Assembly (NCBI GenBank): GCA_020348445.1
Contig: CP070751.1
Coordinates: 4,886,101-4,950,100, forward strand
DNA from: Thermoplasmata archaeon
GTDB lineage: Archaea; Thermoplasmatota; Thermoplasmata; GCA-020350865
Direction of reading: 5' to 3'
Length of the DNA stretch: 64,000 bases
Numbering within the stretch: position 1 is the stretch's first letter; the number at the start of each line of letters is the position of its first letter. A program made the translations under genes and the position numbers. Positions 5,101-28,122 of the stretch are shown here, piece by piece. Below the pieces are notes generated by a model, which saw only the letters and a list, made by a program, of their open reading frames with translations, was not told the origin of the DNA and made no database searches.

Positions 5101-8100
5101 CAAAATAATCTAATAGATGAAAACACCATTTATAATAATGGATGGGACGGAATTCGCCTTTCAAATGCAGCAGGTTCCGTAATCAATCAAAATACCATTA
5201 ATTCAAATGGTGATGATGGTATCGACGTATCATCTGGCACGGTAATAATTGGCAATGTTGTAAATAACGCAGCTGATAATGGAATCGAAGTGAGTAATTC
5301 ACCATTTTCCTTAATCATTGCTAACATCGTGACAAATAGTGGGGATGATGGAATATTAATAAAGAATTCACCGAATAGTATAATATTCGATAATATGGCC
5401 AAGTTCAACGATGTCCCAGTGGATGACGGAACAGGCCTTGTTGTGTTGGATTCTGATAACTGCCAAATAACATATAATATATTGGAAGAGAATTGGCGCG
5501 GAATGTACCTCCAGGACTCGGATTACTGCACAATAAGTAACAATGCTGTAAATTATAATTCCGGGGACCATGGAATCGAACTGTACCAAGCCTACCATAG
5601 TACCATAACAAATAATACCGCAAACAACAATGGTTACACAGGAATCACCGCACCCACTGTCGATATCATCTATAATAACACGGCAAATGACAACGGCAAT
5701 GACGGGATTTCTATAACATCATCCCCCAATATAGAACTACATCATAATACGGTGATAGATAACGGGGATGATGGTATCGCAGTATCATCTTCACATGATA
5801 TTATAATACACAACAATTCAGCATATGACAATGGAGACGATGGGATCGTTGTTTCATCTTCTGAATATGCGATAATTAAGGACAACATGGCCAGTGATAA
5901 TCATGGAGATGGCGTGTCAGTATCCTCTTCACAAGGGACTGTTATATATAATGTTATAGCGACTGGTAACGGTCATGTGGGAATCAGAGTAACTCATTCC
6001 AAAGATAGCAAAATTACAGATAATACGGCAAGCTTTAGCGGACACGGTATATACGTGGGTTCATCATCTGACTGCTTGATAGACAACAACTATGCAAACA
6101 ACTGTGGAGACGATGGAATCATCGTAAGTGGTTCTCCAAGGTGTGTAATAAGCAACAACTTTGCCAATCTAAATAACGTAGCATCAGATATCGGAACCGG
6201 TTTTGTGGTTCTATCTTCTGCCGAAACAGAAATAAAATATAATGAAGCGATTCTCAACTATCGTGGGATGTATGTCGAAAACTCCTTAAGTTGTGACATT
6301 CACGATAATGAGGTGAATGAAAACACCTGGTACGGCGTCCATCTCTATTATTCTGATAACAGCACTATAACCGGTAACAACGTGAGTTTCAATTCAGGGG
6401 AATGGGATTCAGTGGGAGTCTATCTTTCGTATTCTGATGATCCTGTAATTACATCCAACTTAATCTCTTCAAATTGGCATGGATTAAAATTGTGGCACTC
6501 CCATGATAGTACAATTACACATAATGAAGTGAACATGAACTCGAGATCTGGTATATCTCTGGAGTACAGCGGAAAAGTCAGCACCAATCCACTTATATAC
6601 GATAATACCGCGAATTCAAACGGTGGAAGCGGCATTTCTCTGACACATTCAGATTATGTAGATATTGACTTCAACGTCGCAATGTTCAACTCCCGTGGCA
6701 TTTCACTTACTTCATCAGATCATGTTACAATAACTGACAATACAGCAAACAGCAACGGCTATGGCATATATTTGGGTGGATCAAACCATAACGTGATCTA
6801 CAATAACTATGCTGAAAGGATTGGAGGAGCGGGCACATACGGTATTTATCTGAGATCTTCTAGCAATAACAACATATCACATAATTACGCAAAATACAAC
6901 TATTTTGGCATCTCACTTGTATGGTCCAGCAATCATAACACTGTATTACTTAACGATGTGAGATTCTGCATAGATTACGGTGCATATTTGTACAGAGCCC
7001 ATCACAATACATTGGATCAAAATGATTTCGAAACCTCAAACGGAATTGGTGTCTATCTGGAGCAGTCCGACAATAATGACATAACCTACAATAATGTGAT
7101 GTTTGCCTCAAATTATGGCATTAGCCTCTTTGAATCAGATTTGAACACGATGTTCAAAAATACAGCAGAATATTGTGATATCGGGATCTCATTAAGATGG
7201 TCACATTATAATGATATAATAAGTAATTGGGTGGATAATAACAACAACATAGGAGTCGATTTGTGGCTTTCAGACAACAACACGGTAACCGACAACTCAG
7301 TTGATAATAATCCCAACTATGGGATACATCTATACTCCTCAGACAATAACCTCATCATCGATAACGATGCTAATTCTAACGGAATAGGCATTTATCTGGA
7401 CTGGTCAAAGAACAACATCATAGATTCAAATACCGCTACCTTAAATAACCTGATAGGTATAGCAGTGTTCTGGGAAAGTGACGGAAATATAATCATCGAT
7501 AACAACGCGAACTTTAACGTGAACGAAAGCATCCGTATTTCCTATTCGGATAACAATCTTGTAGAGGACAACCAGGCATCCGGAAGCATCATCGGAATAC
7601 ATCTAGACTGGTCGGATAATAATATTGTCCAGTACAACAACGCAGATAATAATGTCGTGGGCATCCGTTGCGAATGGTTCAGCGACAATAATGTGATAGA
7701 GGACAATTCGGCCACTGGTGGTGTTATTGGAATTTCTCTGGAATGGTCCTCTTTAAATGATGTCATTGGCAATGATGCTAGCTACAACAATGTAAGTATA
7801 ATGCTGGAATGGTACAGTGACATCAATACTATCCTCGATAATATCGCTTGCTACAGTGATTTCGGTATCTATCTTGATTGGTACTGTGATAATAACTCGA
7901 TCTTGTACAACAATGCCAGTTATAATGTCCTAAACGGGATCACTTTGGAAAAATCCGAATATAATTTCGTGGATAACAATACGATCATTAGCAATGATAT
8001 CGGATTAAAGTTGACTTCCGGCCATAATAATATTATCGGTTTCAATTTTTTCATGCTAAACAACATAGCCATCTTCCTAGACCCATCAAATTACAATATT

Positions 8101-10845
8101 CTCTATGACAATATGGTTGTAAACAATCTAGTGGGCATAAATGTAGAGGAATCTGTGGGTAATTTGATATATCGCAACAATTTCAAAGACAATGTTGACC
8201 AAGCATGTTGCGAGCCCGACTGCGGTTGTGCTGATAATGATAACTTCTGGCATCACCCCGATCTGCTGGAAGGCAATTACTGGTCTGATTATCCAGGTGC
8301 TGACGACGGAAGCGGTACAGGGAAACATGCAATTGCAGGTGACGCAATAGGCGACACCGATTTACCGTGGGGATGCTATGACGACTATCCATTCGTGATA
8401 GAAAACGCATGGATAGGAGGAATAGAGCATGCGCCTTTTGCCAGTGCAAATGGTCCATATTCCGTGGACGAAGGTTCGCCTGTTAATTTCGATGCATCAG
8501 ATTCTTACGACCTCGACGGCGATCCACTAGAATACAGATGGGATATGGATGGTGATGGCATATGGGATACCCCATGGAGTACCAGTCCCTACGCAACGTA
8601 CACTTGGTACGACGATTATACTGGGATTGCTATAGTTGAGGTAACCGATGGTACATATTCAGATACTCACTCTACCAATGTCATCGTGAACAATGTCGCA
8701 CCTACAGCAGATTTTGGGAATAATGGGCCAAAGGATGAGGGGAGCACGGTGACAGTATCGTTCACCAACCAGTACGATCCCGGTCTTTTCGATACGGTCT
8801 TCACGTACTCATTCGACTGGGAAAATGATGGCACATATGATATTGTAGACCAGACAGGTTCCTCAGCCACGCATACCTGGAACGACAACGGGATCTTCAC
8901 CGTGAAAGGAAAAATCATGGACAAGGACGGTGGATATACCGAATACACCACCGATGTCACCGTGAACAATGTTGCACCAACCGTAGATGCGGGTTCTGAT
9001 CAAGCTGCAGACGAAGGAGACACTGTTTCATTCTCAGGCACATTCACAGATCCCGGCTCTGAGGATACACATACCATAGAATGGGATTACAACTATGACG
9101 GAATAACATTTACAGTGGATGATTCCGGTTCCTTAACAACAAGTACCGTGTTTGCTGATAACGGTGTTTTCATTGTGGCATTGAGGGTAACAGACGATGA
9201 TGGTGATGAAGGATTGGACACCCTCACAGTCACGGTGAGCAATGTTCCACCTATTGCAATTGCTGAGGTTTCGCAATACGTTGTTGATGAAGGCACTCCT
9301 TTGAATTTCTATGGAAGCCAAATTGATCCCGGAGCTGACACGTTCACATATCTTTGGGAGTTTGGTGATGGCGGCAGTAGCACCGATCAAAATCCAACGT
9401 ATGTGTATATGGATAACGGTGTGTATACTGTCGATTTCACAGTAACAGACGATGATGGTGATTCAGGCACCACGACATTAACGATATACGTAATTGACCA
9501 AGCACCAATAGCTGATGCAGGTCCAGACAGAACAGTAACCATAGTTGATGTAGTGACCTTCGATGCCTCTGGATCTTCGAGCTATCCAGATCCTTTGACA
9601 TTATATGCGTGGGACTACGACGGCGATGGGGAGTTTGATGCCACTGGACTTGTGGTGACGCATACCTTTGATAAAGTAGGTATATATACCGTGATTCTAA
9701 CTGTCACCGATGATGACGGAAGCATGGATACAGATACCGCGATAATCACGGTGCTTGCCCCAGGAGTGGACCTACTTCCAAGCGAGGTCACATTTTCACC
9801 AGAAAGTCCGGTAGATATAGGAGTTTCAGTGACAATTTCTGCAGATATCACGAATTTCGGTGCAACCGATGCTGCCAGTGTAATCGTAAGATTCTACGAC
9901 GGAAATCCTGATGAGAATGGGGACGGCAGCCCTGATACCGGAGCTGTTCAAATAGGAAGCGATATCGTATTTTCCAGCATCGCATCAGAAGAGACTGTTT
10001 TCGCTTCTGTAACATGGACTTCGACGCTAGGTTATCATGATATCTATGTTTGGGCAGATCCCGACAATTATGTTCCTGAATACGATGATACAAACAACCA
10101 GGCATTTGATATGATCCTTGTAGGGCCAGATCTTGTTCCCAGCAACCTGGTATTTTCACCGGAAAGTCCAGTAGGTGAGGGAGATACAGTCACAATTTCC
10201 GTGGATATCACAAATGAAGGAGGTACCACAGTCACCAATGTTCTCGTTCGATTCTACGAAGAATATCCGGATGCAAACGACGACGGTTTCGAGGATCCAA
10301 GTGCCGATCAGATAGGTGATGTAATAATACCAAGCCTTGGCCCAGGAGCCACGACCACAGTTACAATGACATGGATTCCATCTAGCATAGGCACATATGA
10401 AATCTCAGTATGGGTGGACCCAGCAATCCAGCCAGATCATAATGGAGCGATATTGGAAGCAATAGAAACGAACAACATCGCATCGGAAGTAATGAACGTC
10501 GGACCCGATCTCTCAATCGTATTCACAGACATTTCATTCTCAGATAATCCAGCTTCAGAAGGGACCATTGTCACGATAACGGCAGTAATCCACAACGATG
10601 GTGGACAGGATGCAAATGATGTTGTGGTCAACATTTATGACAATGAGAAAAAGAAGAAGAACCTGATTGGCAGCATCACCATATCCACTATACCTGCAGG
10701 TGATTCATATACAGTGACCATCACGTTCGATACTACCGGGGAAGCTGGATATCACAATATTTGGGTGGTAATAGATCCCAAGGACGATATCGAAGAGTAC
10801 GACGAAACCAATAACGAAGCTTACAATGTGTTGAACGTTGTATAA
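2101..10845 (+). CDS. Giant exported protein (2914 aa): right-handed parallel beta-helix (NosD/PbH1-type) modules + 5 PKD + 3 CARDB domains
   Basis: N-terminal hydrophobic segment (ILAFLCVFVVATVIAVAV); dozens of ~22-aa GIxLxxSxxNxIxxN coils; two GNYWSDY...DxIGDT caps; NNVAP..DEG..WD.GDG..VTDDDG PKD units; GPDL...SPESP CARDB units; AGGAGGA RBS. Confidence 0.9.
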   Translation: MKPKIILAFLCVFVVATVIAVAVNVGVQIGDTTPNDLDGGGMVTKEQPEPGEELPEMMPEDVSSTETVDEENLPVNPPEEEPKNELYYDDWIVSEEIIIENSRITVDGNIVVTSTGSLILKNVELTCHDVNIEAGGNFWIDPSVVISHDVYVGSGSTLTLIATTWMMDCTYDGQYGIQVNSSATMIIKSGSIITAVNPDYEYWFKVNNGAVFEMRDSELHECGWQWPPGGLEINTPNVIIDNNLISNNYYGFLLTSDNNYIANNTITDNQRGMYVYGSNNNLIVNNIVTNNVGRGINLGYYSDNNLITDNWCSGNTIGIRVGHYNDNNLITDNTCFSNSQWGINLYLSDSNIITNNNVSNNAGGIGLESSNNNLVYHNNIIGNSVQANDDAPANNDWHDTGLLEGNYWSDYTGVDDGSGMGKHADQGDGIGDTLIPHPTTDYDFYPLVHSWGSVININTGEIFPAIQPAIDDSNTLNGHMIKVYGGTYHENVKVYKEVYVIGEGWDVTTVEAFDPNDHGFYVTADFTRIAGFKVTGATGGSPYFASGIYFDDIDLFDCIYNNLTGNHYGIYAEDCYKGLIGHNSVSQNHFGIYPAYNNDQNLISQNVANFNTYYGIVLWSGSDYNTISHNSVRYNGAGGITLGFSDWNAIYSNEAKNNKYGIEFQQPSDNNTIKLNTIMYNEHGINLKGSSSNTIEKNTITNNDYGIYLRLSSLYNEVHYNNINGDDNKYYGIYANPDSPVNATLNWWGHPSGPYDPSDDTGSGGWYNPFGLGDNVSDYVEYDPWLGAPFNTLYVDDDATGFEDGSLAHPYNTITEAVNNAMPGYNVFIFDGTYYENVVINKILTFYSNTAGIHLNGHLTIVSGGSLTLKCFKLMMNSTVMGEFGIYVNHGGKLFIMGSPGTPSIITNGVNASAYYEFQVRNGSKFEMFDSEVEYAGHAWNLPEYNEAGLWINTDNVLIHNSEIHHNNYHGLILYNSSGHHIINCTIHHNSWSGIWGRNSQNNLIDENTIYNNGWDGIRLSNAAGSVINQNTINSNGDDGIDVSSGTVIIGNVVNNAADNGIEVSNSPFSLIIANIVTNSGDDGILIKNSPNSIIFDNMAKFNDVPVDDGTGLVVLDSDNCQITYNILEENWRGMYLQDSDYCTISNNAVNYNSGDHGIELYQAYHSTITNNTANNNGYTGITAPTVDIIYNNTANDNGNDGISITSSPNIELHHNTVIDNGDDGIAVSSSHDIIIHNNSAYDNGDDGIVVSSSEYAIIKDNMASDNHGDGVSVSSSQGTVIYNVIATGNGHVGIRVTHSKDSKITDNTASFSGHGIYVGSSSDCLIDNNYANNCGDDGIIVSGSPRCVISNNFANLNNVASDIGTGFVVLSSAETEIKYNEAILNYRGMYVENSLSCDIHDNEVNENTWYGVHLYYSDNSTITGNNVSFNSGEWDSVGVYLSYSDDPVITSNLISSNWHGLKLWHSHDSTITHNEVNMNSRSGISLEYSGKVSTNPLIYDNTANSNGGSGISLTHSDYVDIDFNVAMFNSRGISLTSSDHVTITDNTANSNGYGIYLGGSNHNVIYNNYAERIGGAGTYGIYLRSSSNNNISHNYAKYNYFGISLVWSSNHNTVLLNDVRFCIDYGAYLYRAHHNTLDQNDFETSNGIGVYLEQSDNNDITYNNVMFASNYGISLFESDLNTMFKNTAEYCDIGISLRWSHYNDIISNWVDNNNNIGVDLWLSDNNTVTDNSVDNNPNYGIHLYSSDNNLIIDNDANSNGIGIYLDWSKNNIIDSNTATLNNLIGIAVFWESDGNIIIDNNANFNVNESIRISYSDNNLVEDNQASGSIIGIHLDWSDNNIVQYNNADNNVVGIRCEWFSDNNVIEDNSATGGVIGISLEWSSLNDVIGNDASYNNVSIMLEWYSDINTILDNIACYSDFGIYLDWYCDNNSILYNNASYNVLNGITLEKSEYNFVDNNTIISNDIGLKLTSGHNNIIGFNFFMLNNIAIFLDPSNYNILYDNMVVNNLVGINVEESVGNLIYRNNFKDNVDQACCEPDCGCADNDNFWHHPDLLEGNYWSDYPGADDGSGTGKHAIAGDAIGDTDLPWGCYDDYPFVIENAWIGGIEHAPFASANGPYSVDEGSPVNFDASDSYDLDGDPLEYRWDMDGDGIWDTPWSTSPYATYTWYDDYTGIAIVEVTDGTYSDTHSTNVIVNNVAPTADFGNNGPKDEGSTVTVSFTNQYDPGLFDTVFTYSFDWENDGTYDIVDQTGSSATHTWNDNGIFTVKGKIMDKDGGYTEYTTDVTVNNVAPTVDAGSDQAADEGDTVSFSGTFTDPGSEDTHTIEWDYNYDGITFTVDDSGSLTTSTVFADNGVFIVALRVTDDDGDEGLDTLTVTVSNVPPIAIAEVSQYVVDEGTPLNFYGSQIDPGADTFTYLWEFGDGGSSTDQNPTYVYMDNGVYTVDFTVTDDDGDSGTTTLTIYVIDQAPIADAGPDRTVTIVDVVTFDASGSSSYPDPLTLYAWDYDGDGEFDATGLVVTHTFDKVGIYTVILTVTDDDGSMDTDTAIITVLAPGVDLLPSEVTFSPESPVDIGVSVTISADITNFGATDAASVIVRFYDGNPDENGDGSPDTGAVQIGSDIVFSSIASEETVFASVTWTSTLGYHDIYVWADPDNYVPEYDDTNNQAFDMILVGPDLVPSNLVFSPESPVGEGDTVTISVDITNEGGTTVTNVLVRFYEEYPDANDDGFEDPSADQIGDVIIPSLGPGATTTVTMTWIPSSIGTYEISVWVDPAIQPDHNGAILEAIETNNIASEVMNVGPDLSIVFTDISFSDNPASEGTIVTITAVIHNDGGQDANDVVVNIYDNEKKKKNLIGSITISTIPAGDSYTVTITFDTTGEAGYHNIWVVIDPKDDIEEYDETNNEAYNVLNVV

Positions 10846-12663: not shown

Positions 12664-14136
12664 TCACACAACCTGCGTCTTAAGCACCACAGTATTTGCC
12701 ACCATATCCCCTATCCTCTGACTTTTAGGATATCTGCTCATTAAAAGCAAACTCACGGCATAAATAAACATCGTCATATCAAGAAGCCGAACCACATTTC
12801 TTGTGAAAGCATCCATAAACCCACATTTTCCCCGCTCGTCCGTTGCGACCTTAATGCCTACCAGCCTCTTGCCTGGGGTATGTCCAAATGCACCCTCGAA
12901 AATTGTAAAGTACACGACCTGAGCCACCCACAACCACATAATGAAGGCAATAAACCAGATGGACATAAGAAGCACACGAAGGTCTGTTAGATCGTAAAGA
13001 CCCGCAACACCCCCAACATATAAAAATGGTATCATTATCCCGATGATGATCGATATATCAATTAAGAAGGCCACTATCCTCTGAGAAGACGTGGCATAAA
13101 GTCTCCTCTCCACTCTGTTTAACTCGCGAATAATATGTCTTGCAGTCATTTGAGCACGAAGGGCATCATCCTCTGTTATATTACCTAATCTTGCCGAATT
13201 TACAAGCAGCCAGTAATCGTTTCTTATATAGGGGTGCACGGAAAGTACATCCAGTATTACATATGGACTTTGAGCTATTTTGAATTTGCTCCCTAAATCC
13301 GTAATCTTCATATCAACGGCCCTTAAAGAGGTTTTGAAAGCACCTTCAAAATCACCGCTTTCTGCCTTTTTCCCCGCCATAGATAGGGTATTTTTCAGGT
13401 TTTTATCAAAGGCTCTCGAAGGTGAGAGCTCAGGCTTCGAATGTCTCAGTATACGGGGTGCTAGGAAAAATAAGGGAGCAATTGCAATAAGTCCTGCCAA
13501 AAACACCAAGTCAAGCCCTCCTGCACCGCCAATGGAGCCTGCGGCAAAGGGTAAACCCATCTCCTCCCTTATCTCCTCGAGTCCTACCATAACCTGTGGT
13601 ATGCGGACGATATCTGCTCCGATGAGCACCCCAAATGTTGTTGTTGCGTACGCAAATGGAATTCCCATGGTGATCTTCTTTCTGTAGACCAACAAAGCCA
13701 AGGCAATGGCAGAAAAAGATGGGAACAGGAAATAAGGAAATTCCGAAACTATCCCCAGAGGGGGCCGAAATTCCGTGGTCATATATGTTATCAATCCGAT
13801 TATCGCAACCGCACCTATTACAGCAGGCATGTTCAGTTTCTTGATTTTTATAAGATACAATGAAAGTACAATAGGTATTATGGCTCCCCCCAAATCAATG
13901 GCCAATAAAGAGCCTTGGTATATTAACAATGGTACACCGTACAATCCGAGAGGGCCCAATACTATCCCAACCAATCCACCTACCAAAAGGAGTCCCACCT
14001 CCCTTCTACCCAATCCGCATTTTTCTAATAAGCCAGCATAATCCATATGACCGATGTACAGCTCCACAAATAGCAAAACTGGTATTGCTATGAATACGAC
14101 AACTGCAATCACATCTATCCATTGCGCATATTCCAT
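12664..14136 (-). CDS. DUF1614-family membrane domain fused through a helical (HEPN-like) linker to an RDD domain
   Basis: N-terminal multi-TM region with LAIDLGGAIIP, GVLIGADI and SIGGAGGLD (DUF1614-like); C-terminal QRIVAFLID...GHTPGKRLVGIKV...QRIGDMVANTVV (RDD). Start moved to the ATG at 14136. Confidence 0.75.
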   Translation of the reverse strand: MEYAQWIDVIAVVVFIAIPVLLFVELYIGHMDYAGLLEKCGLGRREVGLLLVGGLVGIVLGPLGLYGVPLLIYQGSLLAIDLGGAIIPIVLSLYLIKIKKLNMPAVIGAVAIIGLITYMTTEFRPPLGIVSEFPYFLFPSFSAIALALLVYRKKITMGIPFAYATTTFGVLIGADIVRIPQVMVGLEEIREEMGLPFAAGSIGGAGGLDLVFLAGLIAIAPLFFLAPRILRHSKPELSPSRAFDKNLKNTLSMAGKKAESGDFEGAFKTSLRAVDMKITDLGSKFKIAQSPYVILDVLSVHPYIRNDYWLLVNSARLGNITEDDALRAQMTARHIIRELNRVERRLYATSSQRIVAFLIDISIIIGIMIPFLYVGGVAGLYDLTDLRVLLMSIWFIAFIMWLWVAQVVYFTIFEGAFGHTPGKRLVGIKVATDERGKCGFMDAFTRNVVRLLDMTMFIYAVSLLLMSRYPKSQRIGDMVANTVVLKTQVV

Positions 14137-14228
14137 TGTGACACCCAAAAGCAGTAATTATTGATATCATTTGCCCAAAGTCATGGAAAAAAGATAAATT
14201 CTTCTATTATGCTGAAATAAGTTACTAC

Positions 14229-14612
14229 TCATTCCTCTTCTTTATGTCTGCTCCATACATCATCGGAAATTTCATCATAAATTGCATAATCTTCATTTGT
14301 TGGGACCTCATCAACGAGGTTTGCGAGCCGCAGAATCTCCCTCTTCTTTAATACCCAGTAATGTATACGCCAGATCTTGCCTTTTTTGATGGTTATCTGA
14401 TCCTGGAATGTGGTTAGTATTCCCACATCCTGGAGCGTGTAAAAAACGTCTCTATCTTTAGCTTTGAGAAGGTTGTCTGAGATGGTGTCTTCAAAACCAA
14501 AGAAGTTCATCACATATTCAGCCAGCTTTTTAACCTCTTCCTTCTCCATGCCCTTTTTGCCCAATGTGTTCATCAGGGCACGTTCCACATCCTGGACAGT
14601 GATGGTGGTCAT
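14229..14612 (-). CDS. DUF6015-family protein (Thermoplasmata-type, function unknown)
   Basis: FFGFEDTISDNLL...RDVFYTLQDVGIL...WRIHYWVL pattern; AGAGGA RBS. Confidence 0.7.
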   Translation of the reverse strand: MTTITVQDVERALMNTLGKKGMEKEEVKKLAEYVMNFFGFEDTISDNLLKAKDRDVFYTLQDVGILTTFQDQITIKKGKIWRIHYWVLKKREILRLANLVDEVPTNEDYAIYDEISDDVWSRHKEEE

Positions 14613-14773
14613 TTAAACATCCTCTGCAGGATCGCGATTTCATCCAAATATCGCATTGATACCAAATTCTGCGCAACCACCTAATCGATTATTCATTAAT
14701 GTAACTTTCGATTGGAATATCAGGGTGGATTTTTTAGAAATTCTGTGTTTTTAACGAAAAAACCGGGATACTC

Positions 14774-15079
14774 TCATCCATAAGCGAAGCCATCGTACTC
14801 CTTCGTACTTTTCTTTCCACCGCTTCGTTTTATTGATTTGCGCTGAGAGGCCTTCCTGCCTATAAAATGAAAATCCCTTCTAAGAAGCCTGATGAAAACC
14901 TTATCAGGCAGTGACTCGAGAGCGATTATACCCCGTGTTTGAAGGCGGGCAAGGCCCCTTTCCAACATCTTCTCAGAGATAGCAAGCTCCTTTCTAAGCT
15001 CCTCGGTGGTAATTGGGTAAACCTCCAAAAGGACCTCTATGATCCTCGCCTCCAAACTGCCTCGTTCTATTTCGATCAT
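14774..15079 (-). CDS. Small winged-HTH protein with a basic C-terminal tail
   Basis: LEARIIEVLLEVYPITTEELRKELAISEKMLERGLARLQTRGII helix-turn-helix pattern. Confidence 0.7.
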   Translation of the reverse strand: MIEIERGSLEARIIEVLLEVYPITTEELRKELAISEKMLERGLARLQTRGIIALESLPDKVFIRLLRRDFHFIGRKASQRKSIKRSGGKKSTKEYDGFAYG

Positions 15080-15156
15080 TATAACATAATCGAATTTAAG
15101 GTTAAATAATCTATCTGACGCTTGATATAATAACAGGAACGAAAAGTCTCACTTGC

Positions 15157-15459
15157 CTAGTAGTATTCAGCCCTTTCAGATACCAACTTCCTCAGTTTTC
15201 TGACTTTTTGCTTGCCGCCTGTGTTCACAAAGCTGGGAAAATATTTCAAAAGGACCATATCACCAACAGAATCTATCCAACGAAAGGGAATCAGTACGCT
15301 CCCAGATTCCTCAACGAGCAGCGGGTTCGTGTTTCTAACATATATGCCGTATATATTCCTGGTATCTACATCGACTACAATATTATCTACATTGCCCAGA
15401 TATAGGGCCTCGTTCGTGTAAACTTCTAACCCTAGGATTTCCATAAGTTCCGTCATCAT
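15157..15459 (-). CDS. PRC-barrel domain protein (resembles archaeal CdpB cell-division proteins)
   Basis: LGLEVYTNEALYLGNVDNIVVD...IPFRWIDSVGDMVLL is a PRC-barrel signature. Confidence 0.8.
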   Translation of the reverse strand: MMTELMEILGLEVYTNEALYLGNVDNIVVDVDTRNIYGIYVRNTNPLLVEESGSVLIPFRWIDSVGDMVLLKYFPSFVNTGGKQKVRKLRKLVSERAEYY

Positions 15460-15587: not shown

Positions 15588-17138
15588 ATGGATGCAATTA
15601 TAAACTCTGTGGGAAGGAAAATTCCAGAAGAAATAGATGGGAGAAAGCTTAAGCCATATCAAGGGGCCTTTTCTACAGCACCTGAACCCTGGAAGGCGCC
15701 TATGAAAGCAGGTTTTATAAAACCGGGAGAGAGTAAGATACTGGCATCTTTGGAGGAGTCCATAAAGAAAACTGGCCTTACAGATGGGATGACGGTATCC
15801 TTTCACCACCATCTAAGAAATGGAGATGGTGTTATTAACATGGTGATGGACGCCATTGCCCAGATGGGGATAAAGAACATCAGAATATTCCCCACAGCTC
15901 TCTTTCCTGTTCATGAACATTTAATACCCCACATAGAAAGCGGAGTCATAACCTCAATCGAGGGCAGCATGAACGGCCCTGTTGGAGCTGCTGCGACATA
16001 TGGCATTCTTCCCAAGTGCGCAGTTCTGAGATCCCACGGCGGAAGGATAAGGGCTATACATTCTGGGGATGTGAAGGTTGATGTGGCCTTTTTGGCAGCT
16101 TCATCAGCTGATCCTTACGGGAATTGTAACGGTGTCTTTGGACCCAACTTCTTTGGACCAGTGGGATTGGCCAGGGCCGATGCCATGTTCGGTGAGCATG
16201 TGGTTATTGTGACAGATAACCTAGTGGAATACCCCTGCTATCCAATCAGTATATCACAGAAATACGTGGATTATGTAGTTGAGGTTCCTTCTATCGGGGA
16301 TCATGCGGGCATAGTATCTGGAACAACTGAGGTCACAAAGGATCCAAAACAGCTTGCAATGGCTGAGCAGATTGTAAAACTAATTGAGCAGTCTGGCCTT
16401 CTTAAGGAGGGTATGTCCTTTCAGGCAGGAGCTGGAGGGGTTTCCCTTGCTTCCATGAAAGTACTTCACGATTACATGAGGGAAAAAGGGATTCACGGTA
16501 ACTTTGCAATTGGGGGCACAACCAAGTACCTGGTTGATATGCTAAGGGATGGTACTATTCGGGTTCTTTTAACTGGTCAATCTTTTGATCTAGAATCCAT
16601 AGAATCCATTGCCAAGGATTACGGCCACCAGGAGATTACAACCGATTTTTATGCCAACATCCACAATAAGGGCTGTGCAGTCAACTGGCTGGATGTCGTT
16701 ATTCTCGGGGCCACAGAAGTTGATGTGGATTTTAACGTTAATGTGAACACACACTCTGATGGTAAGTTGCTACATGGAATAGGGGGTCATCAGGATACTG
16801 CTGCAGGAGCCAAACTGACAATTATCGTATGTCCGCTTTTCAGGAAGAAAATACCCATTGTCAGGGAGTCTGTGACCACTGTAACCACACCTGGTGAGAC
16901 AGTGGATGCAATTGTCACAAATGAGGGAATAGCAATAAATCCAAGAAGGCAGGACCTTGTGAAAAAATTACAGGAAAGTGACTTACCCATAAGAAAGATT
17001 GAGGATCTGCAAAAACAGGCATATGAGATAACTGGCGGTCCTCCAGAATTGGTAACAACTGATAGGATCATCGCTTTAATCGAATACCGTGACGGATCAA
17101 TAATAGACGTTGTCAGGGGATTGAAAAAGGATTCTTAG
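15588..17138 (+). CDS. citF: Citrate lyase alpha subunit / citrate CoA-transferase (family II CoA-transferase)
   Basis: MTVSFHHHLRNGD, RSHGGR, SFQAGAGG, DVVILGATEVDVDFNVNV, GGHQDTAAGA; 516 aa is typical of CitF. Confidence 0.9.
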   Translation: MDAIINSVGRKIPEEIDGRKLKPYQGAFSTAPEPWKAPMKAGFIKPGESKILASLEESIKKTGLTDGMTVSFHHHLRNGDGVINMVMDAIAQMGIKNIRIFPTALFPVHEHLIPHIESGVITSIEGSMNGPVGAAATYGILPKCAVLRSHGGRIRAIHSGDVKVDVAFLAASSADPYGNCNGVFGPNFFGPVGLARADAMFGEHVVIVTDNLVEYPCYPISISQKYVDYVVEVPSIGDHAGIVSGTTEVTKDPKQLAMAEQIVKLIEQSGLLKEGMSFQAGAGGVSLASMKVLHDYMREKGIHGNFAIGGTTKYLVDMLRDGTIRVLLTGQSFDLESIESIAKDYGHQEITTDFYANIHNKGCAVNWLDVVILGATEVDVDFNVNVNTHSDGKLLHGIGGHQDTAAGAKLTIIVCPLFRKKIPIVRESVTTVTTPGETVDAIVTNEGIAINPRRQDLVKKLQESDLPIRKIEDLQKQAYEITGGPPELVTTDRIIALIEYRDGSIIDVVRGLKKDS

Positions 17139-17150
17139 GAAGCTGGTATT

Positions 17151-17912
17151 ATGGATGCTGTAAAATGGAAAACAGGAATCACGAAGGTGGAGCCAAACAA
17201 GATAGTAACAAGAGGTTATCCTCAGGATGAACTCATTGGGAACGTCCCTTTTTCTCACGTTGTGTTTCTTCTCATGAAAGGGGAAATGCCCTCAGAGAGC
17301 GAGGGAAAAATGATGGATGCAATACTCACAGCCTGTGTAGATCACGGTGTGACACCTCCTTCCTCCCAGGCCTCGAGGGTGGTGGCCTCAGGGGGTGTTC
17401 CAATGCCAACTGCCATAGCCGCGGGGCTTATGTCAATAGGTGATTTTCACGGAGGGGCCATCGAAAAAGGTGCCTTGTTTTTACAGGATGGGGTAAAGCG
17501 TATGAAAGATGAGGGAAAAAGTGCTGAGAAGATGGCTTCTATATTGGTTAAGGAGTCAAAGGAAAAGGGCAAGAGGATTCTGGGCTTTGGACACAGGATT
17601 CATACAGACGACCCAAGGACAAAGAAGCTGCTTTTACTGGCGGAGGAACTTGGAATCGCAAAGGAACATGTGGCACTTTCAAGGGCAATTGCAGTTGAGC
17701 TTGAAAAGACCCTAGGTAAGAAATTGCCCATAAATGTTGATGGTTGTGTGGCTGCATTGATTTCTGACATGGGATTTGACTGGAGGTTGGGTAAGGCTTT
17801 TTTTGTAATAGGGAGGACTGCAGGCTTGACCGCGCAGGTTTACGAGGAGATATCCAGGGAGAAGCCTATGAGGAGGATGTGGAGCGCGGATGTTGAGTAC
17901 GATGGGCCATAG
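17151..17912 (+). CDS. ccl: Citryl-CoA lyase (short citrate-synthase-fold protein)
   Basis: WKTGITKV..RGY, DHG, GDFHGGA, GFGHRIH, PINVDG, GRTAGL; 253 aa is too short for citrate synthase and typical of Ccl; starts 12 bp after citF. Confidence 0.85.
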   Translation: MDAVKWKTGITKVEPNKIVTRGYPQDELIGNVPFSHVVFLLMKGEMPSESEGKMMDAILTACVDHGVTPPSSQASRVVASGGVPMPTAIAAGLMSIGDFHGGAIEKGALFLQDGVKRMKDEGKSAEKMASILVKESKEKGKRILGFGHRIHTDDPRTKKLLLLAEELGIAKEHVALSRAIAVELEKTLGKKLPINVDGCVAALISDMGFDWRLGKAFFVIGRTAGLTAQVYEEISREKPMRRMWSADVEYDGP

Positions 17913-18036
17913 GAAGGGAAGGTTTGAGTGAGATAGAAGTTTTTATTTGAATAGACAAGTGAAAAAGGATTTTTAAGCGTCCCCCTCACCCTTGACACAC
18001 AAACCCTTATATACAATCTTTCTTCATGCCAGCTCA

Positions 18037-20136
18037 ATGAAATCCCCTTCTAAATCCAATCGCTTGATCAATGAAAAGAGTCCTTATCTTTTGCAGCATG
18101 CCCACAATCCAGTTGACTGGTACCCCTGGGGTGAGGTAGCTTTTGAGAAGGCAAAATCCCAGGACAGGCCTATATTCCTTTCCATTGGCTACTCCACTTG
18201 TCACTGGTGCCATGTCATGGAAAAGGAGTCCTTTGAAGATGAAAAGGTTGCGAGGCTTCTTAATGAAAACTTCGTGTGCATAAAAGTGGACAGGGAAGAG
18301 CGGCCAGATATAGACAACATCTACATGACAGTCTGTCAGATGTTGACAGGAAGCGGAGGATGGCCTCTTACAATTATAATGACTTCTGATAAAAAGCCCT
18401 TTTTTGCAGCAACATACATACCAAAAGAAAGTAGATTTGGAATGGCTGGTCTTTTGGATCTTATACCGAAAATATCACAAATTTGGGCAAACCAAAGAGG
18501 GGAAATTCTAAATTCAGCAGAACAGGTTATAACAACCCTAAAATGGTACCCTCAGACATCCAAAGGTGAAGAGCTGGATGCATCTATTCTCGACTCCGCA
18601 TATGGAGACCTTCTAAATTCATTTGATGAAAATTACGGGGGATTTGGGAGTGCACCCAAATTTCCCAGCCCCCATAATCTTATCTTTTTGCTTTGGTATT
18701 GGAAAAGGGCAGATCATCAAAAAGCCCTTCATATGGTTGAGGATACATTAAAGAAGATGAGACAAGGAGGAATCTGGGATCATGTGGGATTTGGATTCCA
18801 TAGATATTCAACTGACAGATTCTGGCTCGTTCCCCATTTTGAAAAGATGCTTTACGATCAGGCAATGCTGGCTCTGGCCTACACCGAGGCATTTTACGCA
18901 ACTGGTAAATCTGAATATAAAGAAACTGTAGAGGAATTATTGCAGTATGTTCTAAGGGACATGACCTCCTCTGAGGGGGGGTTTTACTCTGCTGAGGACG
19001 CGGATAGTGAAGGGGAGGAGGGTAAGTTCTATTTGTGGACTGAAGAGGAAATTAGAGGGAACTTGGGTGATGAAACAGAGAATTTTAAAAAAGTATTCAA
19101 TATATCAAAAGATGGCAACTATATCGACGAAATCAAGGGTAAAAAAACGAAAAAAAATATTCTCCATCTTAAGAAATCCTACTCAGACCTAGCAAAGGAT
19201 ATGGATGTTCCCCTCGAAGAACTCAAAATAAACATTGAAAAAGCTAGACAGATATTTTATGCAAACAGGGAAAAAAGAGTTCATCCTCACAAGGACGATA
19301 AAATACTAACAGACTGGAATGGACTTATGATAGCAGCCTTTGCAAAGGCTGGATTTGTTTTTGGTAATGCTGATTACATTGGGGTGGCAAAGAATGCTGC
19401 TGATTTCATTTTAACAAATATGGATGATAAAGATAATGGTCTTTTACATAGGTTTAGAGAAGGAGAAGCCGCGATACCTGGATTTCTCGATGACTATGCA
19501 TTCTTTGTTTGGGGTTTGATTGAACTTTATGAATCTACCTTTGAATTGAAATATCTGAGCCATGCAATTGAATATACAAAATACTCAATCGAGCATTTCT
19601 GGGATGAGGAGGGTGGTGGTTTTTTTTTAACTTCTGATCACGCAGAAAATCTTCTCGTTCGCCATAAAACAGGTTATGATGGTGCCATCCCATCTGGGAA
19701 CTCCATAGCAATGCTGAATTTAATAAGGCTGGCAAGAATCAGCGGGAATTCTGGAATGGAAGAAAAAGCTCAAAATGTCAAACTCGCATTTTCCAGCGAT
19801 ATCAATAATCATCCTCTATCTCATACCCAATTCCTGACGGCTTATGATTTTCTTGTAGGGCCCTCATTTGAGGTTGTTATTGTAGGAGATCTTGATTCAG
19901 AAGATACAAAAGATATAATGAATCTATTTCGTGAATATTATTTTCCAAATATGGTTCTTTTGCACAAACCCATTGATAGATCAACAAATATAGAATCCAT
20001 CTCACCTTTTACAAAAGATATGTCAACCATAAACGGAAAAACCACCGTATATGTTTGTCGTAACTTCAGTTGTGAGCTCCCAACAAACGATAAAGAAAAA
20101 ATACTGAAGCTGCTTAATGTAAAGAATATTTTATGA
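18037..20136 (+). CDS. YyaL/SSP411-family thioredoxin-domain protein (DUF255 + alpha/alpha barrel)
   Basis: [66 protein letters not shown]. Start moved to the ATG at 18037. Confidence 0.93.
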
Positions 20137-24297: not shown

Positions 24298-27200
24298 TTA
24301 TTCCAACGTTCCCTTAATGCCGCAACTTGGGCATTGAACATCTATAGGACCTTCGGTTTTTGTAACATTAAACATATAACCGCAATCTGGGCAGGAAATA
24401 TTAATTGCGTTTTGCTGAGCGAAACCCTCAGACTGGATCATGCCATGACCATTATCCTTTTTTCTTGTGGTAAGTACACCAACTACAATTATGATTATCG
24501 CCACTATAACTATCAATAATAGCAATATGAAGGGGTTTATTATCGTAGATGTTTCTTCCCCCTCATCCTTCTCCTCGGGCTTTTGTTTTGTTGTGAACTC
24601 AAATACATATTTATTCTCCAATCGATGGCCTGCCAAATCCTTTGCCTTGGTGCTGATAGAGATTTGGTAAAGAGTGCCATCAGCAAATGGCTCAGTAGCA
24701 TTTAGAGTTAAGGTTTTATCGTCGTTACTCCATGAATAGGTATATTCTGTATAAGGTATGATAGAAATTGCAGGTTCCACTGATTCAATGTCCATAGGTT
24801 CACTAAATTCTATAATAACTTCTGTATTAACTAAAACATCGATTGCCGCATTATCTGGTTGAGTGGATATAACCGAAGGAGATGTAAAATCAATACTAAT
24901 TACAAAATATTTTTCGTTCACATTACCCGCGACATCAAGAGCCCTAATAGTTATCGTATATGTTCCATCTTCCCAACCAGTAGTATCAAGATCATACGGT
25001 GCCTCCAAAGTCTGTAATTTCCCCTGATTGATAAAATAGCTCACAGAATCCAAATTATTATCTGAGACTTCAAAGTCCAAGATTTTTACATCAGTTAACA
25101 AAGAGTTGTTTTCTGGTGAATTTAATGAAATCTCTGGTAAAGTGAAATCTTTTGGAATCCCTTTTTTGAACTTGAACCATTTCTCGTTGATGTTACCTGC
25201 CAAATCGTCTGCATAGATACTTATGGTATATTCTCCATCAGGCCATTCATTTGTGTCTATTATATAAGGTTGTGTAAGGAGCCTTGGCGCGTCACCATTT
25301 TTGGAATAAGTAACATGGTTCAGATTTGCGTCCGAAATTGTGAATCTTATTTCAACACCTTCTCCAATATTGGAGTTGTTCGAAGGTGAGTTTAGTGTTA
25401 TAATAGGAAGTTTACTATCCTTGATAAAGATAAACCAATTCTCGTTGGAATTACCCGCCAAATCTTCGACATGTATTGTTAAAGTATGTTCTTTATCCTG
25501 CCAATCGTTTGTTTCGATGATGTAAGGCGGCGTAAGGAGTTCAAAAGGACCCTCGTTTTTAGAATATGTGACTGTATTGAGGTTTGCATCTGAGATTAAT
25601 AGGTTAATCTCTACATTTGATTTAATATATGTGTTGTTGGGTGGCGAGTTCAGCTCAATTGCGGGAGGAGAAGAATCAATTGTGAAATTGTACCAGGTTA
25701 CTTTAAAGTTGTTTGCGAGGTCACTTGCATTTAAGGTAACAATATAATTATCATCAATCCAAGTATCGGTAATTATATCATAAGGCTGATTAAGTTCCTC
25801 CCACGCACCATCATCAATAGAATAAAAAACACTATCTAAATTTGTATCTGATACTGAAACGTCAATTACGGTTGCAGCTGGTATTATTGAATTGTTCTCA
25901 GGCGAATTCAACATAATTTCCGGGGGAGTTGAATCGATAGTAAAACTGAACCATAAAGCGGCAACATTGTCGTGGGTATCTTTTGCAGTAATGTCTATGA
26001 CATGACTTTCATCCTCCCATTCAGTTGTAAGTATATCATAAGGAGCAACTAGGGATTGAGTTGGCCCATCATTTACAGTATAAGTTACTTCATACAGATT
26101 AGGATCAGAAATAGAAAAATCGATTGTAGTGCCAGACCTGATTATCGAGTTATTAGAAGGTGAAATCAGTTCTATTATTGGAGGGGAATTGTCAAACTTC
26201 ACTGGTCTGATTAACGGATAATTGTCTTGATCGTATTCGGATATAATATAAGGATTCTTCCCTCCTCCCTGAGCTGATCCATTATCTACTATACCATCGC
26301 TTCCCACCATATCTTGATTTTCTCCTTGAAAATCGTCATATGCATCTTCACCCGGTTCATCCAAATCAGACCAATAATTTCCACCTGAGGGGTAAGTATT
26401 ATTCCAAGTGTTGTTTCCATTGTCGTACGCTTGAGGAAACGCGATATTGTTGATGAAATTATTGTGAAGGATATTGTTTTGTTCTGAAGATTCCATATAA
26501 ATTCCATACTCTGTGTTACAGGTGATGTTGTTGTAGATAACTGTATTGTTACTGCACCAGCGGATAAAAACGCCATACCCGTCATTTGAGTGGATAGTAT
26601 TGTTGTCTATGGTATTGTATTTACAACTCTCCCGAAGCCAAATACCCCCATTATTGTTTGAAACGTTGTTGTTGGATATAATATTACCATCTGAAGTAGA
26701 GCGTAAGACAATGCCATCCCTGTTGTTAGAATGTATGCTATTGTACGCTATCGAATTGCCAGTGCTCCATTCGAGATATATTCCATACCAATTGTTAGAA
26801 TAAATACTATTGGCTGTCATTACGTTGCCTGGACTTGACCATACGATTATACCGTATTCATTGTTCAAAACATCGTTGTCAGATAAGGTATTACCAGAGC
26901 TCTTTTGAAGGTATATACCATAATAATTGTTTGAAAAACTGCTGTTTGTAATTCTAATGGAATTTGAATATCCCAATTCGATACCAACATCAGTATAAGC
27001 CATACCAACGTTATTTATGGTAATCAATGAGCAGTTGACAAGTATTATTCCCCCCACCGTAATACCATCAATAGTGATACCTTCACGGTTCTTATAGTAG
27101 ATTAGGGGTTCACCATTTATCAAGTTTCCTGGAGGTATTTCATGAATAAAATGAGAAATCCTATCTGCCTCTCCATCTATAAAAAGACCATCATTTGTGA

Positions 27201-28122
27201 AGATGTTATCAATGATATAATTGTTAGAACTTGCCCAAAGATGGATGCCATGATAATTATTTGAATAGATTCTATTTTTGGATATCGTGTTATTAGAGCT
27301 TTCCCAGAGGTAAATGCCGTGCCACTCATTTGAATGGATGCTGTTGTTAGATATGATATTTCTTGAACTGTAGTATAGATTTATACCATAGTAATCATTT
27401 GATGAGGCGTTGTTATTGGATACAGTATTGCCAGGACTGAAACCCACATATATGCCATTATAATCGTTTAAATAGACTGTGTTGTTTGTTATGGTATTGT
27501 TTGAGTCTATCAGGGGTTCATACTCGTTATTGAGCACTATACCATAATGATTATTTAAAACGCTGTTGTTTGATATGGTGTTGCTATTGCAATTCGAGTA
27601 GAGATATATACCATACATATCGTTTGAATAGACGCTGTTATTGTGTATGATATTGCTGTTGCAACTCGATTCAAAATATATTCCCTCTCTAATGTTATTG
27701 TGAATTTCATTATCAGATATTCTGTTATTCCTTGATAAGTAGAAGTTAATTCCATCATGATTATTATAAATCTCGCTTTTTTCTATGGCTCCATTCTCTA
27801 CATTTCTAAAGTATATTCCATTGAAATTGCTGCCGCCTTCATGAATATTGCTGTTTCTAATCACAAAATAGACATCTGTGTTTCTTATGTCGATGCCATT
27901 TGCAAAATATGCATAGATAATATAATCCTCGATAATATATGGATTGCTTTCTGTCCCTTCTCCTGGCCATCCCTCCTGCGCTGCCTTTGCGGCAAAATCT
28001 GCATTTCCATCTATAAATATTGGCTGGTCGGCAGATACTGTGAAGGATATTAATGTTATTACATGGATGAGACCGCCCATAAGGATCATCAAAACGATAA
28101 TTGAGCTACCCACTTTTTTCAT
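24298..28122 (-). CDS. Membrane-anchored surface protein (1274 aa): NosD-type beta-helix, 5 Ig-like repeats, Big_5-like domain, TM helix, cytoplasmic zinc ribbon
   Basis: Signal-like N-terminus; GIYL..SxxN coils; GGNYWSD cap; five D..PP.I.LNSP.NNS...WxDG.Y...D.AGN units; IEFSEPMD domain; TM PFILLLLIVIVAIIIIVVGVL; terminal CPDC-x16-CPSC-GIKGTLE. Confidence 0.88.
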   Translation of the reverse strand: MKKVGSSIIVLMILMGGLIHVITLISFTVSADQPIFIDGNADFAAKAAQEGWPGEGTESNPYIIEDYIIYAYFANGIDIRNTDVYFVIRNSNIHEGGSNFNGIYFRNVENGAIEKSEIYNNHDGINFYLSRNNRISDNEIHNNIREGIYFESSCNSNIIHNNSVYSNDMYGIYLYSNCNSNTISNNSVLNNHYGIVLNNEYEPLIDSNNTITNNTVYLNDYNGIYVGFSPGNTVSNNNASSNDYYGINLYYSSRNIISNNSIHSNEWHGIYLWESSNNTISKNRIYSNNYHGIHLWASSNNYIIDNIFTNDGLFIDGEADRISHFIHEIPPGNLINGEPLIYYKNREGITIDGITVGGIILVNCSLITINNVGMAYTDVGIELGYSNSIRITNSSFSNNYYGIYLQKSSGNTLSDNDVLNNEYGIIVWSSPGNVMTANSIYSNNWYGIYLEWSTGNSIAYNSIHSNNRDGIVLRSTSDGNIISNNNVSNNNGGIWLRESCKYNTIDNNTIHSNDGYGVFIRWCSNNTVIYNNITCNTEYGIYMESSEQNNILHNNFINNIAFPQAYDNGNNTWNNTYPSGGNYWSDLDEPGEDAYDDFQGENQDMVGSDGIVDNGSAQGGGKNPYIISEYDQDNYPLIRPVKFDNSPPIIELISPSNNSIIRSGTTIDFSISDPNLYEVTYTVNDGPTQSLVAPYDILTTEWEDESHVIDITAKDTHDNVAALWFSFTIDSTPPEIMLNSPENNSIIPAATVIDVSVSDTNLDSVFYSIDDGAWEELNQPYDIITDTWIDDNYIVTLNASDLANNFKVTWYNFTIDSSPPAIELNSPPNNTYIKSNVEINLLISDANLNTVTYSKNEGPFELLTPPYIIETNDWQDKEHTLTIHVEDLAGNSNENWFIFIKDSKLPIITLNSPSNNSNIGEGVEIRFTISDANLNHVTYSKNGDAPRLLTQPYIIDTNEWPDGEYTISIYADDLAGNINEKWFKFKKGIPKDFTLPEISLNSPENNSLLTDVKILDFEVSDNNLDSVSYFINQGKLQTLEAPYDLDTTGWEDGTYTITIRALDVAGNVNEKYFVISIDFTSPSVISTQPDNAAIDVLVNTEVIIEFSEPMDIESVEPAISIIPYTEYTYSWSNDDKTLTLNATEPFADGTLYQISISTKAKDLAGHRLENKYVFEFTTKQKPEEKDEGEETSTIINPFILLLLIVIVAIIIIVVGVLTTRKKDNGHGMIQSEGFAQQNAINISCPDCGYMFNVTKTEGPIDVQCPSCGIKGTLE

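Follow-up and report, generated by a model that had tools for sequence, protein, structure and literature searches.

The window analyzed here is a stretch of 64,000 nucleotides (positions 4,886,101-4,950,100) from the single-contig, closed 5.16 Mb genome of a Thermoplasmata archaeon (GCA_020348445.1, CP070751.1). It contains two adjacent genes, citF1 and ccl, which are predicted to encode a citrate coenzyme A (CoA) transferase and a citryl-CoA lyase (Table 1). The sequence-only reading of this DNA had placed citF 12 bp upstream of ccl, and its open reading frame (ORF) coordinates, strands and gap length all proved exact. Such close spacing implies that the two genes are co-transcribed. Judged from its layout, citF1-ccl is a stand-alone two-gene operon; the gene on the 3' side of ccl (ORF 17992-20136) encodes an unrelated DUF255/thioredoxin-like protein.

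Table 1. Features of the citF1-ccl operon (window positions) and of the second citF locus (positions prefixed G000:C1, on the contig of this genome)
Feature	Position	Strand	Basis or remark
citF1, citrate lyase alpha-type citrate CoA-transferase, 516 aa	15588-17138	+	TIGR01584, Pfam CitF and PDB matches
Spacer from the citF1 stop to the ccl ATG, 12 nt	17139-17150	+	direct sequence reading
ccl, short citrate-synthase-fold citryl-CoA lyase, 253 aa	17151-17912	+	NF004866, PDB 6hxp, motif residues
Intergenic stretch with T-run agtttttatttg, where the operon probably ends	17913-17991	+	sequence reading; putative terminator
citF2	G000:C1:1478093-1479484		last gene of the aconitase-HD operon
Dehydrogenase, residues 1-67	G000:C1:1479504-1479704	+	directly after citF2
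Dehydrogenase, residues 305-357 (last 53)	G000:C1:4456741-4456899	-	3 Mb away, abutting a truncated photolyase

The product of citF1 scored 598.9 bits against the citF equivalog model TIGR01584 (cut-off 501) and 538 bits against Pfam CitF, and its solved relatives in the PDB are 2hj0 (1.9e-140) and 1xr4 (2.1e-131). It is 44% identical to E. coli CitF and 55-59% identical to archaeal and bacterial CitFs encoded beside CitD and CitE. The ccl product scored 292.4 bits against the citryl-CoA lyase model NF004866 (cut-off 245) and fell far under the cut-off of every citrate synthase equivalog. Its main match to Pfam Citrate_synt (PF00285) covered only model positions 162-355 of 357, and full-length citrate synthase, which hydrolyses citryl-CoA, has ~370-430 amino acids (aa). 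The best solved relative is the CCL of Hydrogenobacter thermophilus (6hxp, 2e-66), aligned full-length over residues 6-252. In citrate synthase, the catalytic His, His and Asp lie in the HGGA, GFGHR and NVDG motifs. In Ccl, residues H100 (HGGA), H148 (GFGHR) and D197 (NVDG) align with the citrate synthase and CCL motifs and are invariant among 24 relatives. Ccl is also the only PF00285 (citrate-synthase-family) gene product of the genome, which leaves the organism without an ordinary citrate synthase.

The whole genome was searched for the usual partners of both proteins. Profiles for CitD (PF06857), CitC (TIGR00124), CitG (PF01874) and CitX (PF03802) found no match in the closed genome, with positive E. 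coli controls, and the sole match to the CitE-containing family PF03328 (HpcH_HpaI, 25 bits) was the barrel of pyruvate kinase. tblastn queries with E. coli CitC/D/E/G/X/T, as well as with three archaeal CitDs, archaeal CitE and CitD-E fusions, returned nothing from the genome at E<=1e-3. As for citryl-CoA synthetase (Ccs), the sole Ligase_CoA pair in the genome is the true SucC/SucD, above both succinyl-CoA synthetase equivalog cut-offs. tblastn gave no AclB-like match in the genome, and an archaeal AclA query matched Ccl and SucD alone, not an ATP-citrate lyase (ACL). Pfam Citrate_bind (PF16114) had no match in the genome, though the control genomes gave none either. The completeness estimate of 81.7% reflects the lineage and not lost DNA, because the assembly is a single contig and a congener with a closed genome likewise stands at 81%. 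As far as these searches reach, the genome is without CitD, CitE, CitC, CitG, CitX, Ccs and ACL. Therefore, the earlier observation that none of citD/E/C/G/X or ccs lies in the window extends to the whole genome. The outcome that the sequence-only reading named as its refutation, a complete citCDEG(X) set elsewhere in the genome, did not occur; nor was CitD found in any of the five species of the genus (four congeners and this genome).

The reading that we favor, with moderate confidence, is that CitF1 and Ccl work together as a citrate lyase of two enzymes that needs neither a carrier nor ATP and acts on free CoA thioesters. In the first step, CitF1 would load citrate with the CoA of an acyl-CoA, which would yield free citryl-CoA and a free acid; the donor would most simply be acetyl-CoA. 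In the second step, Ccl would cleave citryl-CoA into acetyl-CoA plus oxaloacetate. If acetyl-CoA is the donor, CoA would cycle catalytically, and the net reaction would be citrate to acetate and oxaloacetate, as in bacterial CitDEF. The pair would need no acyl-carrier subunit, no CitG/CitX prosthetic-group enzymes and no CitC activating ligase. The analysis shows which genes these are, that the other parts are missing, that the pair is conserved and that CitF trades places with Ccs-like or ACL enzymes beside Ccl; we infer the use of free CoA esters, which CoA donor serves the pair and which way flux runs.

The pair joins the CoA-transferase subunit known from bacterial citrate lyase to the citryl-CoA lyase known from the reverse Krebs cycle. 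With bacterial citrate (pro-3S)-lyase (CitDEF with CitC/CitG/CitX, EC 4.1.3.6; E. coli citCDEFXG), it shares the CitF alpha family at equivalog level, both half-reactions (transfer of CoA or an acyl group to citrate, followed by cleavage of the citryl thioester) and the expected net reaction. Unlike that system, this genome has no acyl-carrier subunit, aldolase-fold CitE, CitC, CitG or CitX; a protein of citrate-synthase fold would carry out the lyase step, with free CoA esters as the necessary intermediates. Compared with CcsAB + Ccl of H. thermophilus, whose citryl-CoA synthetase and citryl-CoA lyase were reportedly described by Aoshima in 2004, the family and length of Ccl are common to both, whereas Ccs is missing here and citryl-CoA would arise by CoA transfer without ATP cost. 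The C-terminal module of AclA in ATP-citrate lyase (AclB/AclA) is homologous to Ccl (40% identity), but the pair has no ATP-grasp or CoA-ligase part, would use no ATP and is encoded by two separate small genes.

The distribution of the genes was examined in 401 Thermoplasmatota genomes, searched as one set for CitF, CitD and the short Ccl. CitF was found in 111, CitD in 62 and the short Ccl (64-100% identical) in 43. CitF was also present, and CitD was not found, in every one of the 43 short-Ccl genomes, and CitF adjoined Ccl wherever both shared one contig. The occurrence of citF-ccl without citD suggested by the sequence-only reading is thus seen across the phylum sample. Conversely, among the 111 CitF genomes, 60 had CitD, 43 had the short Ccl and none had both; eight had neither, four of them less than 80% complete. 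In the MBG-D type family, CitF occurred in 42 of 53 genomes and CitD in none. Seven genomes of this family without CitF carried an AclA-like fused gene instead, and at the two ACL loci inspected the order HD-AclB-AclA occupies the position held by HD-CitF-Ccl in relatives (L047:5983-9934 in G175 and L048:6010-9961 in G167).

The order to which this genome belongs comprises six species, five in its own genus and one in a sister family. citF and ccl are adjacent in all five species of the genus, with citF1 orthologues 86-90% identical, and four of the five, this genome included, have a second citF. The single species of the sister family has an aconitase, an HD protein, a CitD/E fusion and CitF in a row, and no Ccl. 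These arrangements suggest a local replacement of CitDE by the citF-ccl pair within the order. We also observed a second, distant citrate-synthase-family gene in the congener with the closed genome (G403:C1:260822-261445, 35% identical to Ccl, in a 307-aa frame), which is not present in this genome. In two other Thermoplasmatota genomes (L034:6015-8474 and L035:5986-8566), the gene after CitF encodes a longer protein of 349-360 aa, citrate-synthase-like, that covers nearly the whole Pfam model, a form intermediate between Ccl and citrate synthase.

A scan of one genome per species, with the Ccl alignment as query, gave 80 loci, which were annotated by BLAST against our own reference set. These loci revealed a recurring module, [aconitase]-HD-X-Ccl-[LeuC/LeuD-type pair]-[dehydrogenase], in which X varied. 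X was CitF in 32 Thermoplasmatota loci, with two further loci ending at a contig edge upstream of Ccl; Calditrichota and Caldisericota also had CitF as X, in a divergent placement. A SucC/SucD-like (Ccs-type) ligase took the place of X in WOR-3, Stahlbacteria, Aminicenantes, Chloroflexota and others. The premise of the sequence-only reading that Ccl normally partners Ccs or ACL was borne out by the related loci, in which a Ccs-like ligase, AclB/AclA or CitF share this slot. Since CitF, the Ccs-like ligase and AclB/AclA stand in one slot beside Ccl, CitF would be expected to make or consume citryl-CoA, and this interchange is the strongest available argument, drawn from gene order, for CitF as the citryl-CoA partner. 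A third type of partner was looked for at the WOR-3 loci that had no adjacent ligase; these had dapA/dapB and parA/parB upstream and no transferase, and no CitF or Ccs-like gene was found within 6 kb at L090 and L096. The gene order at these two loci (L090:4286-8661 and L096) is dapA-dapB-ccl-LeuC/LeuD-type pair-DUF366-radical SAM.

The shared slot also bears on the identity of the CoA donor. That CitF-Ccl and AclB/AclA occupy the same place beside HD in sister genomes suggests an equivalent output of acetyl-CoA, and would suit a pair using succinyl-CoA, the donor raised in the sequence-only reading, or another acyl-CoA, in which citrate and succinyl-CoA would give acetyl-CoA, oxaloacetate and succinate as an ATP-free, freely reversible ACL equivalent that spends a thioester. 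SucCD and the eleven POR_N-type 2-oxoacid:ferredoxin oxidoreductase matches of the genome could supply succinyl-CoA, and no family-I succinyl-CoA:acetate transferase (PF02550) was found in the genome. However, no sequence feature points to this donor, and CitF1 is 55-59% identical to the CitD/CitE-adjacent, acetyl-thioester-using CitFs and retains their residues. We regard this donor as rather unlikely.

The second citF gene, citF2, closes an operon that encodes a fused LeuCD-type aconitase (601 aa), a LeuC/LeuD-type pair (422 and 161 aa) and an HDIG-type HD protein (185 aa). The only aconitase-family genes of the genome are those of this operon, and they lie, together with the HD gene, 3.4 Mb from citF1-ccl. 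MBG-D (class E2) Thermoplasmatota have the same citF-ccl gene pair inside an HD-citF-ccl-aconitase operon; here, by contrast, the pair makes up a two-gene operon alone, and the HD and aconitase genes accompany a CitF2 of the CitDE clade. CitF2 falls in a starred clade with CitDE-linked CitFs, although the genome retains no CitD or CitE. An isocitrate/homoisocitrate-type dehydrogenase gene, located 3' of citF2 in relatives and intact in one congener, is broken here and its middle is missing (Table 1), which points to a large inversion with deletion, or to misassembly. The genome has one other relevant dehydrogenase, which is LeuB-like.

The composition of this module could suggest that the substrate is a related acid (citramalate, 2-methylcitrate or homocitrate) instead of citrate. 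All its aconitase-type genes belong to the LeuCD/homoaconitase family, its dehydrogenase scores best against the homoisocitrate and isopropylmalate dehydrogenase models (none above an equivalog cut-off), and citramalate lyase is itself a CitDEF-like enzyme. Against this, CitF1 lies above the citF equivalog cut-off, and Ccl is a full-length match, with the motif residues kept, to an enzyme shown to cleave citryl-CoA. Thus, a substrate other than citrate seems improbable to us.

The HD protein accompanies the tricarboxylate module widely. Proteins of this HDIG type (~175 aa) were observed in archaea and several bacterial phyla, whatever the lyase type, in the contexts HD-CitF-Ccl, HD-CitDE-CitF, HD-AclB-AclA and HD-Ccs-Ccl; in this genome the protein is encoded at L006:9386-9943 (its second locus), and likewise at L012, L040, L047, L098 and others. 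NCBIfam assigns it the generic HDIG domain only, and the HD clusters that it matches in the atlas are all unnamed. A companion matched to nothing more specific might be taken for a non-CitD carrier that makes the pair dependent on a carrier after all, and a lack of Pfam matches leaves room for a novel small protein. But no small ORF is conserved with citF-ccl in the genus, the PRC-barrel, HTH and DUF6015 neighbors of the pair are not kept at MBG-D loci, and the enzymes that build and charge the carrier (CitG, CitX and CitC) are absent too. A hidden carrier is therefore the least probable of the alternatives considered here.

The alternative that deserves the most attention, though we consider it unlikely, is the same chemistry in reverse: Ccl would condense acetyl-CoA and oxaloacetate, and CitF would pass CoA to acetate or succinate, giving an energy-conserving split citrate synthase. 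Citrate would then proceed through a LeuCD-type aconitase and a dehydrogenase to 2-oxoglutarate and glutamate. Several features suit this direction: Ccl is the sole citrate-synthase-family protein, the only aconitase-family genes stand with citF2, the module holds an isocitrate-type dehydrogenase in relatives, and some WOR-3 genomes have Ccl-AcnL-AcnS after dapA-dapB, an anabolic context. However, the module dehydrogenase is broken in this genome, and one short LeuA/homocitrate-synthase-like gene (397 aa, under all equivalog cut-offs) is a possible candidate for a Re-citrate synthase. In addition, with acetate as acceptor the net reaction would be oxaloacetate and acetate to citrate. Values attributed to Guynn and colleagues (1973) and to the Alberty tables reportedly put the equilibrium constant for cleavage, [oxaloacetate][acetate]/[citrate], at ~0.25-0.9 M; sub-micromolar citrate would thus be expected at ordinary metabolite concentrations, and citrate formation would need high acetate and a strong downstream pull. 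We lean to cleavage because the acetate-coupled equilibrium favors it at cellular concentrations. Cleavage by CitF1 and Ccl could serve a redox-neutral route from glutamate, in which 2-oxoglutarate would pass through isocitrate and citrate to acetate and oxaloacetate, and then to pyruvate. The genome has an OadA/PycB-like carboxyltransferase gene adjoining an MmdA-like gene, and such a route with an OadA-like enzyme would suit a peptide fermenter.

In the Ccl tree, the CitF-linked Ccls formed two groups split by starred branches, each beside Ccs-linked relatives, and the Ccl of this genus was sister to the MBG-D Ccls (SH-aLRT 89; 64-73% identical). CitF1 and its orthologues formed a clade of their own, of unresolved position in the CitF tree, and CitF1 is 45-51% identical to the MBG-D CitFs, below its 55-59% identity to CitDE-linked CitFs. 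A tree with a single clade of archaeal Ccl-linked CitFs, in which CitF1 is sister to the carrier-free CitFs of MBG-D, was as good as the free tree (approximately unbiased (AU) test, p=0.62; lnL +1.6). A chimera of an MBG-D Ccl with a canonical CitF was thus considered and is not shown by these data, since the single-clade CitF tree fits equally well and the Ccl tree has the MBG-D Ccls as the sister group.

The bacterial Ccl-linked CitFs lay inside a starred clade with CitDE-linked ones. Two origins of the CitF-Ccl pairing, one archaeal and one in Calditrichota/Caldisericota, are favored by the trees, not proven: the starred branches in both trees suggest an independent bacterial origin, but one clade of all 20 Ccl-linked CitFs, as a single origin would give, was not rejected (AU p=0.115, lnL -36.7). 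No alignment column set all Ccl-linked CitFs apart from other CitFs. Together with the canonical residues of CitF1, this suggests that partnership with Ccl needs no specialized CitF. Such dispensable specialization would fit work from the 1970s by Dimroth and Eggerer, in which the isolated citrate lyase alpha subunit is said to take acetyl-CoA in place of the acetyl-acyl carrier protein (acetyl-ACP).

Several points weigh against a free-CoA citrate lyase. Canonical CitF naturally acts on a dephospho-CoA thioester bound to ACP, and citryl-CoA in free form is a chemically labile compound. At the 16 columns that separate MBG-D Ccl-linked from CitDE-linked CitFs, CitF1 is canonical at 15 and of the MBG-D type at none, so that the MBG-D signature residues are missing and CitF1 carries no apparent sign of adaptation to free CoA. 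The broken dehydrogenase beside citF2 makes the link between citrate and 2-oxoglutarate uncertain in this genome. No citrate-specific transporter was identified in the genome, which has one generic CitMHS-superfamily match, no 2HCT and no CitT. Also, the status of Ccl as sole citrate-synthase-family gene product fits a citrate-forming as well as a cleaving role.

With regard to the surroundings of the operon, a divergent block beside citF1 (window 12664-15459, - strand) encodes DUF1614/RDD, DUF6015, small HTH and PRC-barrel proteins; it is syntenic with CP070726.1 and is not retained at the MBG-D loci. The window also contains two giant ORFs, one of 2914 aa at 2101-10845 (+) and one of 1274 aa at 24298-28122 (-).

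Our literature search found no paper describing a CitF-Ccl system; each part is known by itself, and their combination is not. The reference genomic study of MBG-D discusses the tricarboxylic acid (TCA) cycle without mention of CitF-Ccl (PMC6461988). A 2026 preprint survey reported that ccl is far commoner than ccsAB and put the excess down to false positives (10.64898/2026.09.02.748891). If the proposal holds, a route combining a CoA-transferase with Ccl would explain this excess of ccl over ccsAB in surveys. The present analysis adds the partition counts, the replacement of CitDE within the order, the slot shared by CitF, Ccs and ACL, and the canonical-type CitF of this genus. In particular, this locus would show that pairing with Ccl is open to a CitF whose residues are of the canonical type, so that any CitF could serve for an inexpensive test of the hypothesis.

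Should the pair instead be the organism's citrate synthase, an outcome to which we give a distinctly lower probability than to cleavage, it would save the thioester energy that ordinary citrate synthase discards. It would then provide an entry to the oxidative branch in energy-starved sediment archaea that have no ordinary citrate synthase, and one ancestral Ccl-aconitase-dehydrogenase module would have in CitF, Ccs and ACL a set of reversible "energy couplers" that can replace one another.

Three ways of splitting citrate into C2 and C4 units are established: carrier-protein citrate lyase, ATP-citrate lyase or Ccs + Ccl, and citrate synthase run in reverse. If CitF1 and Ccl cleave citrate as we propose, a CoA-transferase with Ccl would be a fourth citrate-splitting route, operating without ATP or prosthetic-group machinery. 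Its existence would alter the scoring of carbon-fixation and TCA cycle markers in the Thermoplasmatota, an abundant group in sediments.

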